IMG/VR virus record: IMGVR_UViG_2974716960_000001
Location: 13,087-77,086 of that record
Reading direction: 5' to 3' (one strand)
Source: a virus
Lineage: Duplodnaviria; Caudoviricetes
Length of the DNA: 64,000 nt
Part shown: positions 36,324 through 58,866 of the stretch, piece by piece
Numbering within the stretch: position 1 is the first letter of the stretch
Layout of the letters: each line of letters starts with the position of its first letter
Translations under genes and position numbers: made by a program
The notes under the pieces: model-generated
Seen by the model: only the letters and a program-made list of their open reading frames with translations
Databases searched by the model: none
What the model was told of the DNA's origin: nothing

Positions 36324-37181
36324 ATGGCCGTTCATCTGAAGGTCTATAACGAGAAGCTAGGCACCATTAACGGTGCTGCGGAGCCGTTCACCTTCCCCGG
36401 CGGGGAACTGCACCTTAGGAGCATTCTTCCGCCGCTGATTGATGGGACGTGGATTGCGGACGTGCGGGGCGCTGCCACCGACGACCTGGTGACAGCGCTG
36501 CTGCTGGCCGACCACGCAGCGCAACAGGGCCAGCCGTTCGTGTTGTTCCTGCCGTACCTTCCGGCTGCTCGCGCGGACCGGGGGACGCCGTTCGGCCTGC
36601 GGGTGTACGCGGACATGATCAACAACTGCGCGTATGCGGAGCACGTCATTGTCATTGACCCGCATTCGCCGGTCGCTAAGCGGCTGGTTAGGAACATCTG
36701 CCCGCTTGACCCGCTGCCGCTGCTGGACAGGGCGCTAGAGAGCCAAGGGCATTGGCGGTACGACGCAATCATTGCGCCAGATAAGGGCGCAGTGGACCGG
36801 GCCGAGAAGGTCGCTAAGCATTATGGCCTAGACCTGGTTGTCTGCGACAAGGAACGCGACTTTGATACGGGCCGGATTACCAAGTACAAGGTTCCGGCTC
36901 TGTCCACTAAGGGCAAGTACCTGGTGATAGACGATATCTGCGACGGCGGCGGCACATTCGCACTGCTTGCTAGCGAGTCACTTATCGCTAAGACGAACTT
37001 GGACCTTTGGGTCACGCACGGCATTTTCTCCGGAGCTGCTACCAACCTCCGGAATTACTACGGGCGCATTATGACGACCGACTCTCATCCTGGTCATAAC
37101 CGGGTGGGTGTGGCTACGTCGATTGTGCCGACTTACACATACATGCACCAAGCGATGGTTGGCCTTAAGGGGATAGGGTGA
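36324..37181 (+). CDS. Ribose-phosphate pyrophosphokinase-like enzyme (candidate Adps)
   Basis: FPGGE, PYLP.ARADR, DPHS, PDKGA, VIDDICDGGGTF, THGIFS. Confidence 0.9.
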   Translation: MAVHLKVYNEKLGTINGAAEPFTFPGGELHLRSILPPLIDGTWIADVRGAATDDLVTALLLADHAAQQGQPFVLFLPYLPAARADRGTPFGLRVYADMINNCAYAEHVIVIDPHSPVAKRLVRNICPLDPLPLLDRALESQGHWRYDAIIAPDKGAVDRAEKVAKHYGLDLVVCDKERDFDTGRITKYKVPALSTKGKYLVIDDICDGGGTFALLASESLIAKTNLDLWVTHGIFSGAATNLRNYYGRIMTTDSHPGHNRVGVATSIVPTYTYMHQAMVGLKGIG

Positions 37182-38662
37182 GCACGAAATTTGCGCCGGT
37201 CGCGGCGCTATTCGAGACGGACGCATACAAGCTGGGTCACGTTGACCAGTACGCGCTTAGCGGCGACGTGACGCGGGTGTATTCCAACTACACCAACCGC
37301 AAGTCTCGGCTGCCGGGCGTCGATAAGGTCGTGCATTTCGGGTTGCAGGCTTACATTGCTAAGCACCTGATGGAGGCTTTTGAGCCGTTCTTCGCGGCGA
37401 AGGAGAATGAGGTTGCCGCGCTTTACGAGGAGCGGGTTGCTCAGATTCTCGGGCCGGATGCAGCGCACTCGATTGGCTCGGACCATATTCGCCAGTTGCA
37501 TGGGCTTGGGTTCCTGCCGCTGCGGTTCAGCGCGGTGCCTGAGGGGACGCTAGTGCCTATCGGGGTGCCGTCGTTCACGGTGGAGAACACCCACGAGTCG
37601 TTCTACTGGCTGACCAACTACATCGAGACCGGCCTTAGCGCCGGGGTGTGGCAGGCCAGCACGTCCGCGACCATCGCTAAGCAGTACCGGCGGGTGCTTG
37701 AGAGCGCAGCTCTGCGGACCGGTGCGGACCTGGCGGGCGTCGACTGGCAGTGCCATGACTTCTCATATCGGGGTATGTCGTCGCATGAGAGCGCGGCAGC
37801 GTCGGGCGCGGCTCACCTGTTGAGCTTTACCGGTACGGACTCGCTGGTGTCGCTGGATTGGATCGACCGTTACTACGGCGGCGAGTACATCGCTGGGTCG
37901 GTGCCCGCTACCGAGCATTCGGTGATGTGTACCGGCATTGAGACGGTCGGGGAGCTTGAGACGTTTAAGCGCCTGCTGGACCTGTACCCGTCCGGCATCG
38001 TTAGCGTTGTCAGTGACACGTTCGATCTTTGGCGCGTGCTAACCACTTATTTGCCGACGCTGCATAAGCAGATCGTGGGCCGGGACGGGAAGCTGGTCAT
38101 TCGGCCTGACTCCGGCGATCCAGAGAAGATCATTTGTGGCGATCCGGACGCGCCAGTTTCCTCTAACGAGTGGATGGGCGTGCTGGGGCTGCTCTACGAG
38201 CACTTCGGCGGCAAGAAAAACGCTGCCGGGTTCATTGAGCTTGATCCGCACGTCGGTGTGATTTACGGCGACTCAATCACGGTTGAACGCGCTACGAGCA
38301 TCACCGCGCGTATGGAGAAGCTGGGCTACGCGTCGTCCAACGTGGTGTTTGGCGTGGGCAGCTTTACGTACCAGTACAACACCCGCGACACGTTCGGGTC
38401 CGCGATGAAGGCGACGTGGGCTGAGGTCGACGGCAAGGGTTACAACCTGCTCAAGAATCCAGTGACCGACGACGGGACTAAGAAGTCTGCGACGGGTCGG
38501 CTGGCGGTGTTGGAGAACATCTGGGGCGATCTGGCGCTCAAGCAGAACGCCACGATTGAGGACGAGAAGGCGAGCTTGCTCCGTCCCGTTTGGGAGAACG
38601 GAAAGTTTCTAGGCCGGCAGTCGTTTGCGCAGGTCAGGGCGGTTCTGGCCGCTCAGCGGTAG
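37178..38662 (+). CDS. Nicotinamide phosphoribosyltransferase-like enzyme (candidate Namat)
   Basis: TDAYKLGH, HDF.YRG, VPATEHSVM, SVVSDTFD, IRPDSGDP, IYGDSI, FGVGS; GTGA coupling to upstream gene. Confidence 0.92.
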   Translation: MSTKFAPVAALFETDAYKLGHVDQYALSGDVTRVYSNYTNRKSRLPGVDKVVHFGLQAYIAKHLMEAFEPFFAAKENEVAALYEERVAQILGPDAAHSIGSDHIRQLHGLGFLPLRFSAVPEGTLVPIGVPSFTVENTHESFYWLTNYIETGLSAGVWQASTSATIAKQYRRVLESAALRTGADLAGVDWQCHDFSYRGMSSHESAAASGAAHLLSFTGTDSLVSLDWIDRYYGGEYIAGSVPATEHSVMCTGIETVGELETFKRLLDLYPSGIVSVVSDTFDLWRVLTTYLPTLHKQIVGRDGKLVIRPDSGDPEKIICGDPDAPVSSNEWMGVLGLLYEHFGGKKNAAGFIELDPHVGVIYGDSITVERATSITARMEKLGYASSNVVFGVGSFTYQYNTRDTFGSAMKATWAEVDGKGYNLLKNPVTDDGTKKSATGRLAVLENIWGDLALKQNATIEDEKASLLRPVWENGKFLGRQSFAQVRAVLAAQR

Positions 38663-38748: not shown

Positions 38749-39675
38749 ATGACGACCTTATGGGCGATGCGGGGTTATCCCGGCTCTGGTAAATCCACCA
38801 GGGCGCGTGAAATCGCTGACCAGAACGGCGCGGTGGTTGTGTGCCGCGACGATCTGCGCAACATGCTTCATGGCACCTATTTCTCGGGCGTCAAAGAGCG
38901 TGAGGATGAGGTCACGGTTGCGGAGCGGGCGCAGGTTAGCGCGTTCCTTAAGGCCGGTATCTCTGTGGTGGTAGACGCTACTCACTTGGAGCCGTCTTAT
39001 CTGCGTAAGTGGGCGAAGATGGCGAGCATGTACGGCGCTGACTTTAAGCGCGTTGACGTTGACACTGCGGCCCACCTTTGCATCGTGCGTGACTTTAAGC
39101 GCGGCGAGGCCGGAGACCGGACTGTCGGCGCGGAAGTGATTAACCGGATGGCTAAGCGTCACCCGATTAAGAACTGGCCGAACATTCAGGCTCCCCCGAC
39201 GTTCGACCCTAAGCCGGTCGAATGGATTGAGGGTCTGCCGGAAGCCATCATCGTTGATATCGACGGCACGGTGGCTCACATGACGGGCCGGTCACCGTAC
39301 GACTACACGCAGGTTCACACCGACGTGGTTGACGAGCAGATTCGGTGGCTGGTCGGCCTGGTGGACTACTACGGCGGTCCGAACGGTGTCCACGTGCTGA
39401 TCGTGTCGGGCCGGGACGACTCGTGCCGGGTGGCGACTCAGGAATGGTTGTGGAAGAACGCCATTCCTTACGACGAGCTGCACATGCGGCCTACTGGCGC
39501 TAAGGATGAGCACGGTAACAAGCTGCCGGATTACCTGGTCAAGTACGACCTGTTCGACCAGAACATTCGCGGCAAGTACAACGTGCGCTTTGTGTTGGAC
39601 GACCGGGACCAGGTTGTGAATCTGTGGCGGTCGCTGGGCCTTAAGTGCCTGCAAGTGCAGCCGGGGGACTTCTAA
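38749..39675 (+). CDS. pnk: Polynucleotide kinase/phosphatase
   Basis: GYPGSGKS P-loop, RDDLR, VVVDAT; HAD DIDGT, SGR, DDR.QVV.LW. Confidence 0.92.
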   Translation: MTTLWAMRGYPGSGKSTRAREIADQNGAVVVCRDDLRNMLHGTYFSGVKEREDEVTVAERAQVSAFLKAGISVVVDATHLEPSYLRKWAKMASMYGADFKRVDVDTAAHLCIVRDFKRGEAGDRTVGAEVINRMAKRHPIKNWPNIQAPPTFDPKPVEWIEGLPEAIIVDIDGTVAHMTGRSPYDYTQVHTDVVDEQIRWLVGLVDYYGGPNGVHVLIVSGRDDSCRVATQEWLWKNAIPYDELHMRPTGAKDEHGNKLPDYLVKYDLFDQNIRGKYNVRFVLDDRDQVVNLWRSLGLKCLQVQPGDF

Positions 39676-42848: not shown

Positions 42849-44129
42849 GTGAGCTTTGACGCGCCGGAGAACGCTAACTACGCGGCGACAATCGTCAAGC
42901 TGCCGCAGGGGCTTCTCCTAGAAGGTCTGGACAACCTGGTGGGCGTGCCAATGTTCGGTTACCAGGCGCTCACCCAGAAAGAGGGCTACGAGCTGGGCGC
43001 GCTGCGTGTGCTGTTCATGGCTGAGACGCAGCTTGACCCCGACTACGCGCGGGAAAACAACCTGTTCCGTGAGGCCACGCTGAACCGGGACGCCAGCGAG
43101 ACCGGCTACCTAGAGCCGAATGCCCGCGTGAAGGCGCTCCGGCTGCGTAAGCACCAGTCAGACGCGCTGTTGATGCCGCTGTCGTCGCTGGCCTACACCG
43201 GCTACGACGTGTCGGCGCTCAAGCCGGGCGATACGTTCGACAAGCTGAACGGCCACACGATCTGCCGTAAGTACGTGGCGAAGGGTAAGAAGCAGGCCAC
43301 GCAGGGTCAGCCCAAGGTTCGTAAGCAGGTTGACGAGCGGCTGTTCCCGAAGCACTTGGACACGGAGCATCTGTTCCGGAACCTGCACTACTTCCGTGAC
43401 GCTAAGCCTGTCGTGGTGACGCAGAAGTTGCACGGCACGAGCTGGCGCGGCGGCAATATCCCGGTTAACCGGACTAAGGGTCGGTTTGAGCGGTTCCTGA
43501 ACCGTCTGGGCATTGCCACTCCGGACACTGAGTACAAGCATGTGTTCGGCTCTCGGAATGTGGTTAAGGGCCGGTCGGATAATAACCACTTCTACGAGTC
43601 TGATTTGTGGGCGAAGTTCGGCGAGAAGCTTGAGGGCAAGATTCCGGAGAACTTCATCATTTACGGCGAGCTTGTCGGGTGGGTTAGCGAGGATGAGCCG
43701 ATCCAGCGGGGTTACACGTACGACCTGCCGCCGGGGCAGTGCGAGCTTTACGTGTACCGGGTGGCGACGGTGAACCCTAAGGGTGTTATCGCGGACCTGT
43801 CATGGGAAGGCGTTAAGGACTTCTGCCGGACGTTGGAACTCAAGACGGTGCCGGAGTTCGGTTTCGACGTTGAGCATGTGCCGAACTTTGAGGCCGAGGA
43901 GCGATTCGTCCTGGCTTACCAGGAGACGTACATGGACTTGCGTTACGCGGACGCTTACCCCAATGGCGGGTATCTGCCGCTGAGTGACCGCAAGACGGTT
44001 GACGAGGGTATCTGCGTCCGTATCGAGGGCCAGGTGCCGCGCGTGCTCAAAGCCAAGTCGCCGAAGTTCCTTGAGCATGAGACTAAGCAGTTGGATAAGG
44101 GAGAGGTTGACCTTGAGTCGGTGGCGTAA
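42849..44129 (+). CDS. ATP-dependent RNA ligase (Rnl2-like)
   Basis: VTQKLHGT motif I, YGELVG, EGIC, K.KS..FL motifs; N-terminal OB-like domain. Confidence 0.88.
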   Translation: MSFDAPENANYAATIVKLPQGLLLEGLDNLVGVPMFGYQALTQKEGYELGALRVLFMAETQLDPDYARENNLFREATLNRDASETGYLEPNARVKALRLRKHQSDALLMPLSSLAYTGYDVSALKPGDTFDKLNGHTICRKYVAKGKKQATQGQPKVRKQVDERLFPKHLDTEHLFRNLHYFRDAKPVVVTQKLHGTSWRGGNIPVNRTKGRFERFLNRLGIATPDTEYKHVFGSRNVVKGRSDNNHFYESDLWAKFGEKLEGKIPENFIIYGELVGWVSEDEPIQRGYTYDLPPGQCELYVYRVATVNPKGVIADLSWEGVKDFCRTLELKTVPEFGFDVEHVPNFEAEERFVLAYQETYMDLRYADAYPNGGYLPLSDRKTVDEGICVRIEGQVPRVLKAKSPKFLEHETKQLDKGEVDLESVA

Positions 44130-44328
44130 AGCCGCAGTGGTGGGCGCAGTTCTGGCAGCTTTCGGGCTGTCAGGCTGCGCCTCCAACATTCAGGATAAGC
44201 AGACGTACGGCGGCGATGCCGAGTCTGGTGCCCAATATTGGGATGGCTACCTAAAGACGCGCAAGGGTGATGTGTTCTGCGTGTTCTATGACCGTGGCGT
44301 TAGTTGCGATTGGAGCAGCATTAAGTGA
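44113..44328 (+). CDS. Small lipoprotein
   Basis: Lipobox LSGC. Confidence 0.6.
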   Translation: MSRWRKAAVVGAVLAAFGLSGCASNIQDKQTYGGDAESGAQYWDGYLKTRKGDVFCVFYDRGVSCDWSSIK

Positions 44329-44981
44329 GCGTTGACATTAAGGACGCATTCAAGGCGGCTAAGCTGCGTGAGGCTGAGGCTAAGGCTGAACTCGCGGAGT
44401 TGCAGACCGGCCAGGCGTTGCGCGCCGAGCGCCATTTCCAGGCGACCGACGACATGGTTCACCAGCACTATTTCATCGGTGGCGTGGACTCTAAGAACGT
44501 CGCTGAGTGCGCGCAGCACCTTGAGTTCTGGCACCGGCTGGACCCCACGTGCGACATGAACATCGAGATTCACTCCGGCGGGGGTTCTGCGCTGGCGGGC
44601 CTGAGCCTGTTTGACAACCTGACGCGCTACAGCTTGAGCGGCGGCGGTAAGCACAAGGTGACCATGACTGTCCGTGGCCTGGCCGCGAGCATGGCGACTG
44701 TGCTGGTGCAGGCTGCCGACGAGCGGGTTATCGGGCCTGAGTCGTTCTTCATGGTTCATGAGCTGTCCGGCCAGACGGCGGGCAAGATCGGTGAGCTTGA
44801 GGACACGATGGCGTTCTACCGGAAGCTGAATACGCGTATCGGTGAGATTTACGTCGAGCGGTCCGGCGGTAAGTGCTCTGCCGAGCAGTTCGCGGCGCTG
44901 TGGACGCGCCAGGACGTGTGGCTTACCGCTCGGGAGGCTTTCGATCTGGGCTTTGTGGATCGGATCGAGGGGGCTAGCTAA
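44325..44981 (+). CDS. clpP: ClpP-like serine protease
   Basis: IHSGGG, AASMA (Ser), MVHE (His), D.WLTA.EA...GFVD. Confidence 0.9.
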   Translation: MSVDIKDAFKAAKLREAEAKAELAELQTGQALRAERHFQATDDMVHQHYFIGGVDSKNVAECAQHLEFWHRLDPTCDMNIEIHSGGGSALAGLSLFDNLTRYSLSGGGKHKVTMTVRGLAASMATVLVQAADERVIGPESFFMVHELSGQTAGKIGELEDTMAFYRKLNTRIGEIYVERSGGKCSAEQFAALWTRQDVWLTAREAFDLGFVDRIEGAS

Positions 44982-51744: not shown

Positions 51745-51833
51745 GGAGAGTAATGCAGCGGGGGTGGCCCGCGACCGGCCTTGAAAGCCGGGTAGCCGTT
51801 ATGGAGCTTGGGGTTCGATCCCTCTGCTCTCCG
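51745..51833 (+). tRNA. tRNA-Ser(TGA)
   Basis: GGAGAG/CTCTCC, loop CTTGAAA, long variable arm. Confidence 0.88.
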
Positions 51834-51875
51834 CTTATGAACACGTACTCATGCTGACTTACTTGGGGGTGGTCT

Positions 51876-52565
51876 GTGTCTAAGGTGCTTAGCCTTTACG
51901 GCACGAGGTCATCTAAGTATTGGTCCGAAGCTCCGGCGAAGATGGACGCGCTGAATCTGCGTGCGATCTTCCCGTCGAGCAATCCGTTCGGTTTCCCTGA
52001 TCTTGAGCGGTGCGATTGGGTGCCCGACTACCTGGGGGCGTGGCATCTCCCGCGTCAGCGGGAGCGTGCAGCTCGGGAGAACGGGGCGATCCACTTCTTT
52101 TTGGACGACTACCGTTTTGAGACGGCGTTTACAAGCCCTGAGAGGACGCTGGGGCGAGTTACAGCGGTCGGTGGTGCCCTGACACCAGATTTCAGTTTGT
52201 GGCGCGATATGCCGCGTGCAGCGCAGTTGTGGAACGTGTACCGGTCCCGCTGGTGTGGCGCGTACTGGCAGAGCCACGGCGTGAACGTGATTCCTACGGT
52301 CTGCTGGGCACGCTCAGACACGTTCGACTTCTGTTTCGAGGGTCTGCCTCGGGGCGGACCTGTGGCCGTGTCTGCGGTCGGTGTGCGGGCGAAGCCGGAG
52401 GATCAAGCGCTGTTCCGTGAGGGCCTGGCCGCGATGGTCGAGCGTCTTGAGCCGGCAATTTTGCTTAGTTACGGGCGGCTTGTGCATGTGGAGGGTTTGG
52501 ACCTGCCACCTGTGCGGGAGTTCCCGACGTTCTGGGATGAGCGCCGTAAGGCGGTTAACGCTTAG
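51876..52565 (+). CDS. DUF4417-family protein
   Basis: IHFFLDDYRFE, TPDFSLW.DMP.A.Q.WN.YRSRW.GAYWQ..G..VIPTV.W. Confidence 0.85.
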   Translation: MSKVLSLYGTRSSKYWSEAPAKMDALNLRAIFPSSNPFGFPDLERCDWVPDYLGAWHLPRQRERAARENGAIHFFLDDYRFETAFTSPERTLGRVTAVGGALTPDFSLWRDMPRAAQLWNVYRSRWCGAYWQSHGVNVIPTVCWARSDTFDFCFEGLPRGGPVAVSAVGVRAKPEDQALFREGLAAMVERLEPAILLSYGRLVHVEGLDLPPVREFPTFWDERRKAVNA

Positions 52566-52573
52566 GGGGTGTG

Positions 52574-52924
52574 ATGGGCGGTCGCGGCGGTGGTGGCGGT
52601 GGCCCGGTGAGCACCAGGTCATCCACGGTGACGCTGTATCACAGGACTTCTGCGGATGCGGCTCGCGCGATTGTGGATGGTGGGTTTCGTCCGCAGTTCC
52701 GGCCTGGCATGGATAAGTCTTATCGGGATGAGAACTCGCAGTATGGGTTCTTTAGTAAGACGGTTAAGGGCCAGGAGGGTTACGGCCAGAGTGTTGTGGC
52801 TGTGGAGGTTCCGAAGTCTGCTGTTGAGCGTGATCCGTGGTCGGGTCATGTTCGGGTGCGGGTGGAGGAGCTTAGTAACGCAAACTTCCGGCACTATGAG
52901 GGTAAGCGCCGGAAGAAGCGGTAA
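52574..52924 (+). CDS. MGGRG-leader protein with ADP-ribosyltransferase-like domain
   Basis: MGGRGGGGGG leader; TLYHRTS..AA..I...GF, GFFS, YG..V..VEV resemble the ART fold. Confidence 0.6.
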   Translation: MGGRGGGGGGPVSTRSSTVTLYHRTSADAARAIVDGGFRPQFRPGMDKSYRDENSQYGFFSKTVKGQEGYGQSVVAVEVPKSAVERDPWSGHVRVRVEELSNANFRHYEGKRRKKR

Positions 52925-52925
52925 T

Positions 52926-52996
52926 GCCGTTGTGTCCGAGTGGTTAGGTGCCAGGCTGCAAACCTGGTTAGTCCGGTTCGATTCCGGGGGACGGCT
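52926..52996 (+). tRNA. tRNA-Cys(GCA)
   Basis: CCAGG-CTGCAAA-CCTGG, TCCGG-TTCGATT-CCGGG. Confidence 0.88.
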
Positions 52997-52997
52997 C

Positions 52998-58383: not shown

Positions 58384-58866
58384 ATGGGCGGTCGCGGTGG
58401 CGGTGGTACCGGCGGCGGCAAGGGCGGCAATAAGGGCGGTGGCAGCGATCTAACTGTCGATAAGCGGCCTGCTGTGGACGATGCTGCTGAGAAGCACAGT
58501 GACCCGAACGCGGCTGCTGACGCTCTTGGCCTTACTGGGTCCGACAAGGAACACTTTGTGAACGGCGCTAACGCTGAGGGTAAGCGGATTCCTCGCATTG
58601 GGCGCGATGAGAGCAAGATTATTAAGCCAGCGGATGCGGCTAAGTTGCTCGCTGCACACAAGGCCGCTGTGGTCGCGTATGAGCGCAAGTATGGGCGCGG
58701 TGCGGCTCAGGCGTACTCACGTGGTGCGTACTGGTCTCTGGTGCGGTTTATCAAGACGGTTATGGCTGTGTCGTCCACGGTCACGCAGGCGGGTAGTGCT
58801 CCGGCAATGGCGGCTGTGAATGCGGCCATGCTGACTGCCTACTGGGTGGATCGCGCGAAGCGCTGA
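58384..58866 (+). CDS. Second MGGRG-leader protein
   Basis: AAGGGGG RBS, MGGRGGGGTGGG leader; lone plus-strand gene in a minus-strand region. Confidence 0.65.
   Translation: MGGRGGGGTGGGKGGNKGGGSDLTVDKRPAVDDAAEKHSDPNAAADALGLTGSDKEHFVNGANAEGKRIPRIGRDESKIIKPADAAKLLAAHKAAVVAYERKYGRGAAQAYSRGAYWSLVRFIKTVMAVSSTVTQAGSAPAMAAVNAAMLTAYWVDRAKR

Follow-up and report, generated by a model that had tools for sequence, protein, structure and literature searches.

What is the role of two small genes lodged among the tRNA genes of a phage, one encoding a protein of the DUF4417 family (PF14386) and the other a 116-residue protein that begins with MGGRG and a run of glycines? The question is raised by a 64,000-nt stretch of DNA (hereafter the window), which forms the right-hand 64 kb of the 77,086-nt virus record IMGVR_UViG_2974716960_000001. 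The DNA of the window is 80-96% identical to 43 mycobacteriophage records from the Crossroads/Faith1 group (Lclasvirinae), which we take to be Cluster L. The stop codon of the DUF4417 gene is separated by 8 nt from the start codon of the small gene (an ATG at 52574, inside a listed open reading frame (ORF) spanning 52571-52924 on the forward strand), a GGGG(G) Shine-Dalgarno run lies inside this gap, and the pair is embedded in an array of 12 tRNAs predicted by ARAGORN. The spacing, the 116-residue MGGRGGGGGG protein and its location between tRNA-Ser and tRNA-Cys had been pointed out in a preliminary description, with which the reading frames, the sequence and ARAGORN agree. A programmed frameshift fusing DUF4417 to its client was ruled out in this window by the stop codon, the gap and the Shine-Dalgarno run. 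The small protein is called mini-ART below, ART standing for ADP-ribosyltransferase, and proteins starting with the tag are called clients of DUF4417.

The pair is one cassette of a widespread, apparently undescribed two-component phage system composed of DUF4417 and tagged clients; at least, we could not find such a system described. The pairing of DUF4417 with the tag was absent from the part of the literature mentioning DUF4417 that was consulted, and the articles listed as containing the string MGGRG deal, by title and abstract, with unrelated subjects. Likewise, an article on phage ARTs mentions neither DUF4417, nor ParB, nor a glycine tag (PMC9503650). As for the function, we consider it an even bet that DUF4417 recognizes the tag or processes it and thereby brings about the delivery of swappable effectors, probably via the virion.

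Genetic linkage of DUF4417 and the tag

Linkage was surveyed in 166 DUF4417 loci taken whatever follows the gene, 79 from IMG/VR, 7 from metagenomes and 80 from the genomes of bacterial species (429 relatives found), which belong to Actinomycetota, Chloroflexota, Gammaproteobacteria, Melainabacteria, Clostridia and Zixibacteria. An ORF of at least 50 residues starting with M-G-(G/K/RG/QG)-R-G was counted as a tag ORF. Such an ORF was present on the same strand in 150 of the 166 loci: 127 tag ORFs begin between -40 and +120 nt from where the DUF4417 domain ends, another 41 are found further downstream, including tandem arrays of up to four, and five are located upstream. Over 894 kb, 173 tag ORFs share the strand of DUF4417, versus a single one on the opposite strand. 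The association of DUF4417 with MGGRG-starting ORFs, which the preliminary description had put forward, is thus borne out by this survey, and the linkage is real and strong. It also extends to low-GC (guanine-cytosine) contigs of Clostridia and Melainabacteria.

The consensus of the tag is M-G-G-R-G-[SGA]-[SGA]-G-G, followed by a linker rich in glycine, serine and proline. Tags devoid of arginine were not found in this sample, the arginine being flanked by glycine in all of them. The codons of the tag differ synonymously (GGC/GGA/GGT for glycine; CGN/AGR for arginine), indicating that selection acts on the peptide and not on a DNA site.

The pair is retained in the 43 Cluster L records mentioned above (80-96% DNA identity) and is found again, with diverged sequences, in unrelated phage backgrounds; the pairing of DUF4417 with mini-ART thus exceeds chance. 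Diverged standalone relatives of mini-ART (45-55% identity) start with MGGRG too, and on metagenome contigs they are encoded directly 3' of DUF4417, mostly with overlapping stop and start codons. The locus of the window shares the features by which we define a DUF4417/GGRG-tag cassette, namely a tagged ORF on the same strand and near the stop codon of DUF4417, whose body is exchanged from one locus to another. The cassettes of most other phages adjoin terminase and portal genes or the end of the genome. One locus (L006) presents the gene order DUF4417, tagged gene, small terminase, large terminase and portal.

The converse scan of IMG/VR, made with the pattern ATG-GGN-GGN-CGN-GGN-GGN-GG, was dominated by chance and internal matches, such as the Walker A motifs of terminases. 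Among about 14 clean starts of ORFs of at least 100 residues, DUF4417 was directly upstream of 8.

Several loci depart from the simple two-gene order. Tandem tagged genes (two to four, with differing bodies) follow one DUF4417 in L261:3611-5560, L266, L270, L071, L076-L079 and L084, and the tagged gene lies upstream of DUF4417 in L075, L082 and L085. In many Cluster A-type phages (left ends of L020-L065; for instance L033:1061 and L022:1321), the tagged ORF begins right where the homology of DUF4417 ends, and the DUF4417 frame stays open for a further 90-170 nt over the glycine-rich linker, resulting in long out-of-frame overlaps. L208 (a contig of Mycolicibacterium sphagni) and L012 encode a DUF4417 that is 85% identical to that of the window, with no tagged ORF within 3 kb; their client is either located elsewhere, like the second tagged gene of the window, or lost.

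The two proteins, the swappable bodies and other genes of the phage

The DUF4417 protein of the window matches its Pfam family over residues 33-215 with 204.4 bits (cut-off 28.9; E 1.4e-60), and matches phrog_940 over profile positions 139-366 of 388 only. Fusions of DUF4417 to a ParB-type domain occur in many phages and have been described (10.1101/2025.10.10.680097). The AlphaFold (AF2) model of the DUF4417 protein is a seven-strand alpha/beta, TIM-like barrel with a predicted local distance difference test score (pLDDT) of 85 and a predicted template modelling score of 0.83. Among 23 diverse members, residues H73, F75, D78, Y79, F81, P104-D105-F106-S107, W144, A164, S166 and G169 are invariant and form the motifs HFF(L)DDY(R)FE, (T)PDFS and AVS...G. 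In the model, they are placed at or just past the ends of the strands, the usual catalytic face of such barrels, and DUF4417 is accordingly predicted to be enzyme-like.

When this model was compared by VIA with 48,161 chains, archaeosine tRNA-guanine transglycosylase (TGT; Z 7.9), DpdA, which inserts preQ0 into DNA (7.8), QTRT2 (7.5) and TGT (6.8) ranked first. A search of the ESM Atlas returned no usable look-alike. The C-terminal subdomain of TGTs binds zinc through CxCxxC...H. The CxCxxC motif is absent from the 229 residues of DUF4417, which hold four scattered cysteines, and the model stops with the barrel. A TGT-shaped enzyme is thus a lead suggested by the model, and not a membership.

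The tag and DUF4417 may also have changed together. In three lineages, counted by parsimony, lysine replaces glycine at residue 3 of the tag, and residue 143 of DUF4417 changes from cysteine or serine to glycine or asparagine. Residue 145 is always glycine in these lineages, and positions 143 and 145 flank the invariant W144. Such a covariation fits with a contact between the tag and DUF4417.

The small protein reads MGGRGGGGGG, then TLYHRTS...AARAI...GF...YGFFS...GYG...VVAVEV. It has no Pfam family, and its sole PHROG match, end to end, is phrog_6170 (E 2e-60). A word-based search recovered relatives in Cluster L only, two of which are named ADP-ribosyltransferase by UniRef, and a profile search among 1.8 billion representatives yielded 54 relatives, 41 of which were used to build an AlphaFold model (pLDDT 77). 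In this model, residues 1-17, which include the tag, are disordered, the low pLDDT over the tag suggesting that it is probably so in the protein, and the core consists of six strands and three helices. Foldseek matched the model to ARTs only among PDB structures (ExoA, Tpt1, TreTu, PARP10 and DarT1). With VIA, the best likenesses were to the catalytic domain of diphtheria toxin (Z 8.3, 93 residues aligned), the 112-residue Rhs toxin TreTu (Z 7.2) and the NAD lobe of Tpt1/KptA (Z 7.1, root-mean-square deviation (rmsd) 2.8). Look-alikes in BFVD are ART and PARP proteins.

Sequence comparisons point the same way. In PDB, the family profile matched only Tpt1 and PARP10, weakly (E 0.2-1), and in these matches LYHRT of mini-ART falls on LYHGT of PARP10/Tpt1 and F59 of YGFFS (residues 57-61) aligns with the motif-II tyrosine of PARP10 (GVYFA). 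Distant family members overlap Pfam matches to PARP and Exotoxin-A, and one also bears an Arr-ms domain. H23 of TLYHRTS (motif I, strand 1) is kept in at least 90% of the 41 family members, the aromatic column of motif II is Y, F or W in most aligned members, and G69-Y70-G71 is conserved. The ART-like nature proposed in the preliminary description is therefore upheld by the structural matches as well as by the conserved histidine and aromatic motifs. The glutamate of VEV to which it pointed is not conserved, E78 varying (E/Q/K/D/T) even in close relatives. D87 of DPWSG, present in at least 70% of the members, is a candidate for the third catalytic residue. Taken together, mini-ART very probably has an ART fold of the His-aromatic side (diphtheria toxin, PARP and Tpt1) and belongs to a tagged cassette. 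The tail of the protein, GKRRKKR, is basic and might bind nucleic acid. The N-terminal lobe of Tpt1/KptA binds RNA and carries most of the Arg-His-Arg-Arg catalytic tetrad, and the NAD lobe is C-terminal. The RNA lobe is absent from mini-ART, the model of which aligns to residues ~88-180 of the Tpt1 chain only, that is the NAD lobe.

Among the relatives of mini-ART, P0139, P0143, P0152, P0168 and P0177 differ in starting with MPKRR..., an N-terminus that is strongly basic, frequently contains a G-[KR]-F motif and may be a second kind of leader. A weak tblastn match to mini-ART (29% identity, E 1e-3) was also seen in gene 114 of ScoobyDoobyDoo, a 158-kb Mycobacterium phage of another group (MZ820085.1, 65758-66000).

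Mini-ART is one of many bodies carried by the tag. The 165 distinct tagged proteins encoded near DUF4417 represent 25 or more body families that are unrelated to one another. Those with a Pfam match include ADPrib_exo_Tox (ARTs of the R-S-E type), a papain-fold glutamine deamidase toxin and DUF3626, and others belong to a PHROG family annotated "peptidase" or are small helical proteins. The large tagged proteins of Chloroflexota (600-970 residues) have no Pfam family. By its sequences, the tagged set has the architecture of polymorphic effectors, with a constant N-terminal address and a variable cargo. The preliminary description had proposed a modifier-plus-effector system, of which the two-gene cassette stands; the system is however wider than one modifier and one ART, given the many bodies and the three tagged genes of this phage.

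The mini-ART domain is also carried by other phages in a different context. It forms the C-terminal module of a head protein of the MuF/protease type (P0133; phrog_1522, E 2e-59) and is C-terminal in the connector-like proteins P0130 and P0138. The same fold is seen inside multi-domain phage proteins with a ParB domain, namely A0A411AZ66 (BFVD; Mycobacterium phage Stubby, 569 residues) and P0151 (997 residues), which connect ParB-type domains with the same cargo by a separate route.

A search for the tag pattern in the whole 77-kb record gave four matches on the forward strand, one of them a 10-codon ORF, and none on the reverse strand. The phage thus has three real tagged ORFs and one DUF4417, which therefore seems to serve several dispersed clients. 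The tagged gene of 160 residues is a single rightward gene amid leftward genes and is conserved in further Cluster L phages (L120, L148 and L181); its body is unrelated to mini-ART, and its C-terminal part is hydrophobic. The third, gene 1 of the record, directly precedes a small-terminase-like gene (L296:454-843). The window also encodes a NARP1-like pair, a PNKP, an RNA ligase and a ClpP-like protease (Table 1), which look like a block for tRNA repair and NAD salvage. That the NARP1-like pair feeds mini-ART had been suggested; the pair is indeed present, but nothing connects it with mini-ART, and no link of PNKP, RNA ligase or the ClpP-like gene to mini-ART was seen either.

Table 1. Coordinates of the cassette and of other genes discussed in the text (window positions unless stated otherwise).
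Feature	Position	Strand	Basis or remark
NARP1-like pair: PRPP-synthetase-like gene overlapping NAPRTase/NAMPT-family gene	36324-38662		
PNKP	38749-39675		
RNA ligase	42849-44129		
ClpP-like protease	44325-44981		
tRNA-Ser(tga)	51745..51834	+	ARAGORN; left neighbour of cassette
DUF4417 gene, 229 aa, GTG start, TAG stop at 52563-52565	51876..52565	+	ORF listing, Pfam PF14386
Tagged mini-ART gene, 116 aa and stop	52574..52924	+	phrog_6170, E 2e-60; AF2 model
Tag of mini-ART, MGGRG and Gly run, residues 1-10	52574..52603	+	Translation
Predicted ART core, mini-ART residues ~18-108	52625-52897	+	AF2 model
Basic tail GKRRKKR of mini-ART	52901-52921	+	Translation
tRNA-Cys(gca)	52926..52997	+	ARAGORN; begins two bases past mini-ART stop codon
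Second MGGRG-tagged gene, 160 aa, Gly/Lys-rich linker, phrog_6176	58384..58866	+	Pattern search, translation, PHROG
Gene 1, MGGRG start, 125 aa, basic	nt 68-445 of the record (L296:68-445), outside the window	forward	Pattern search

Possible functions of the cassette

Initiator methionine is cleaved off before glycine. Its removal would expose the GGRG end of the clients, which DUF4417 would bind and perhaps modify chemically. The clients would thereby be routed for delivery, most likely into the virion, and would enter the host along with the DNA. Early in infection, mini-ART would then modify a host protein or nucleic acid in an NAD+-dependent manner. That DUF4417 acts on the tag is probable, considering the gene linkage, the enzyme-like conservation and the weak covariation. 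Virion loading as the purpose is a more tentative proposal, which we would place somewhat short of even. It is suggested by the fusion of the mini-ART domain to head and connector proteins and by the survey of phage ARTs, according to which these are often packaged in the head, with their genes next to those for terminase and portal (PMC9503650).

Several observations weigh against tag-dependent delivery by DUF4417. The Cluster L cassette is placed within the tRNA array, where the rightward operon with the replication genes ends, away from the head genes. No tag ORF was present in the sequence covered of 16 of the 166 DUF4417 loci, some contigs being incomplete, and a few clean MGGRGGG starts have no DUF4417, on five contigs that are just 10-72% complete. 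Regarding the barrel, generic TIM barrels come next in the VIA ranking at Z 6.8-5.6, leaving TGT and DpdA a margin of about 1, and Foldseek places tRNA-guanine transglycosylases first with a probability of 0.9 and a marginal E of 0.015. Neither the single sequence of DUF4417 nor a 55-sequence profile matched any PDB sequence at E up to 10, and hhalign of the DUF4417 alignment with a small set of four bacterial Tgt sequences, representing the TGT family PF01702, gave a probability below 1%. The covariation amounts to 2-3 events, and Gly145 is seen with the common tag too. D87 is only a candidate for the third catalytic residue, and mini-ART may bind NAD, act as an NADase or be inactive. Finally, binding, modification and packaging by DUF4417 are all steps that we infer.

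Delivery through a tag read by DUF4417 must be weighed against other explanations. DUF4417 might handle tagged toxins inside the cell, by maturing, activating, holding inactive or disposing of them, in which case the clients would never be packaged and would act in the infected cell, either in host takeover or in the exclusion of other phages. The linkage data would fit this too, as would the enzyme-like character of DUF4417 and the Cluster L cassette at the end of the replication operon, far from head genes. Moreover, tRNA-Cys begins two bases past the stop codon of mini-ART and leaves no space for an immunity gene 3' of it, so that another safeguard would be useful. We nevertheless regard such an in-cell role as unlikely, since the cassette stands beside terminase and portal genes or at the genome end in most other phages, the same bodies are fused to head and connector proteins, and a single tag binder is hard to reconcile with the neutralization of 25 catalytic domains. 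Simple coincidence, by which MGGRG would favour the start of translation or have arisen accidentally as low-complexity sequence in GC-rich phages, carried along by inherited synteny, deserves next to no credence. Chance GGNGGNCGNGG matches are indeed many in high-GC genomes, and most Cluster L copies are simply inherited, but this does not account for the strand bias of 173 to 1, the synonymous codon variation of the tag, the linkage in low-GC Clostridia and Melainabacteria contigs and over six phyla, or the mere 3 real tag ORFs in a 77-kb genome.

The other two explanations start from the fold matches. DUF4417 might be a true transglycosylase of the TGT/DpdA type acting on DNA or RNA, which would join the clients covalently to phage nucleic acid, the incoming group being either the guanidinium of the tag arginine, a look-alike of guanine, or the free N-terminal glycine. 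Effectors joined to DNA would be packaged by the terminase and injected with the genome. TGT and DpdA as best fold matches would agree with such a conjugation, as would ParB fusions that parallel DpdB and DpdA, an arginine always kept between glycines, cassettes adjoining packaging genes and the basic tail of mini-ART. We judge it improbable, considering that the fold similarity is marginal and is not accompanied by detectable homology at the sequence level, that the CxCxxC zinc-site motif is absent and that equivalents of the catalytic aspartates could not be assigned. To our knowledge, there is also no known chemistry by which a protein tag is transglycosylated to nucleic acid. A role in tRNA biology can equally be imagined, DUF4417 performing a TGT-like base exchange in tRNA and mini-ART an NAD-dependent processing of RNA ends similar to that of Tpt1/KptA, both serving the tRNAs of the phage together with PNKP and RNA ligase. 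The location between tRNA-Ser and tRNA-Cys, the fold matches to TGT and Tpt1 (the latter with the best rmsd, 2.8, and as top profile match) and the presence of PNKP, RNA ligase and a NAMPT-type pair in the window would be in line with it. It is weakened by the cassettes found outside Cluster L, which stand by the terminase with no tRNAs nearby, and by the lack of the RNA lobe of Tpt1 in mini-ART; with a body that is moreover freely swapped for a deamidase, an R-S-E ART and other domains, this explanation appears improbable.

We know of two routes by which phages inject effectors, namely fusions to head proteins (MuF, portal) and the capsid-targeting peptide of T4. Delivery by a tag that DUF4417 reads would add a further one, in which an address label of five residues has a conserved, enzyme-like reader of its own; label and reader are distributed over six or more bacterial phyla and go with at least 25 kinds of cargo. 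If true, DUF4417 would gain a function, and many "hypothetical" genes that come first in the genomes of actinophages would find an explanation. Hundreds of candidate effectors, very small ARTs among them, would be flagged, and a portable tag would become available for loading proteins of choice into phage particles. Whether a peptide can be read by a TGT-shaped barrel also becomes a testable question. Should the improbable covalent conjugation turn out to be true, both a chemistry linking protein to nucleic acid and a cargo-loading route would be without precedent.

Comparison with known systems

Among minimal ARTs, TreTu (7zhl), the NAD lobe of Tpt1/KptA (8tfz, 9ldi) and Arr (PF12120) resemble mini-ART by a core of about 100 residues with a histidine in strand 1 and an aromatic residue in strand 2. 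However, identity to them is 7-19%, and mini-ART has neither the RNA lobe of Tpt1 nor the Rhs carrier or immunity partner of TreTu. Regarding its partner, DpdA and TGT (PDB 7ui4, 1iq8, 6fv5 and 3unt) come closest in structure to the DUF4417 model, and the ParB-type N-terminal domain of many phage DUF4417 proteins recalls DpdB, a ParB-type partner acting with the DpdA barrel. In contrast to DpdA and TGT, DUF4417 has no detectable sequence homology to them, lacks CxCxxC and has a smaller barrel (~180 residues). Its partner is a tagged protein, and the DUF4417 loci examined showed no genes for queuosine or deazaguanine synthesis.

The internal proteins of T4 and Alt, an ART, are directed into the head by a short N-terminal peptide, which the scaffold recognizes and the prohead protease cuts off. 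The present tag is similarly a short N-terminal peptide and not a domain, and its clients include an ART. Unlike in T4, the partner is an enzyme-like TIM barrel and the tag is Gly-Gly-Arg-Gly, and packaging is a proposal for the present system.

The closest parallel for the cargo is provided by the MuF polymorphic toxins of temperate phages (Jamet et al., 2017; PMC5576092) and by the fusions of head proteins with effectors surveyed by Iyer, Burroughs and Aravind (PMC9503650). Neither Pfam nor PHROG detected a MuF domain on the 116 residues of mini-ART, and in place of a MuF or structural domain the constant part is here a five-residue tag with a glycine-rich linker, accompanied by a separate, conserved DUF4417 gene. 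Also unlike MuF toxins, mini-ART is not directly followed by an immunity gene. Both systems nevertheless consist of phage-encoded, swappable toxin domains (ARTs, deamidases and peptidases) that are encoded close to the genes for terminase and portal and for which delivery by the head is presumed. They even share cargo, as the mini-ART domain is found in other carriers, at the C-terminus of proteins of the head-protease/MuF type and of connector-like proteins.

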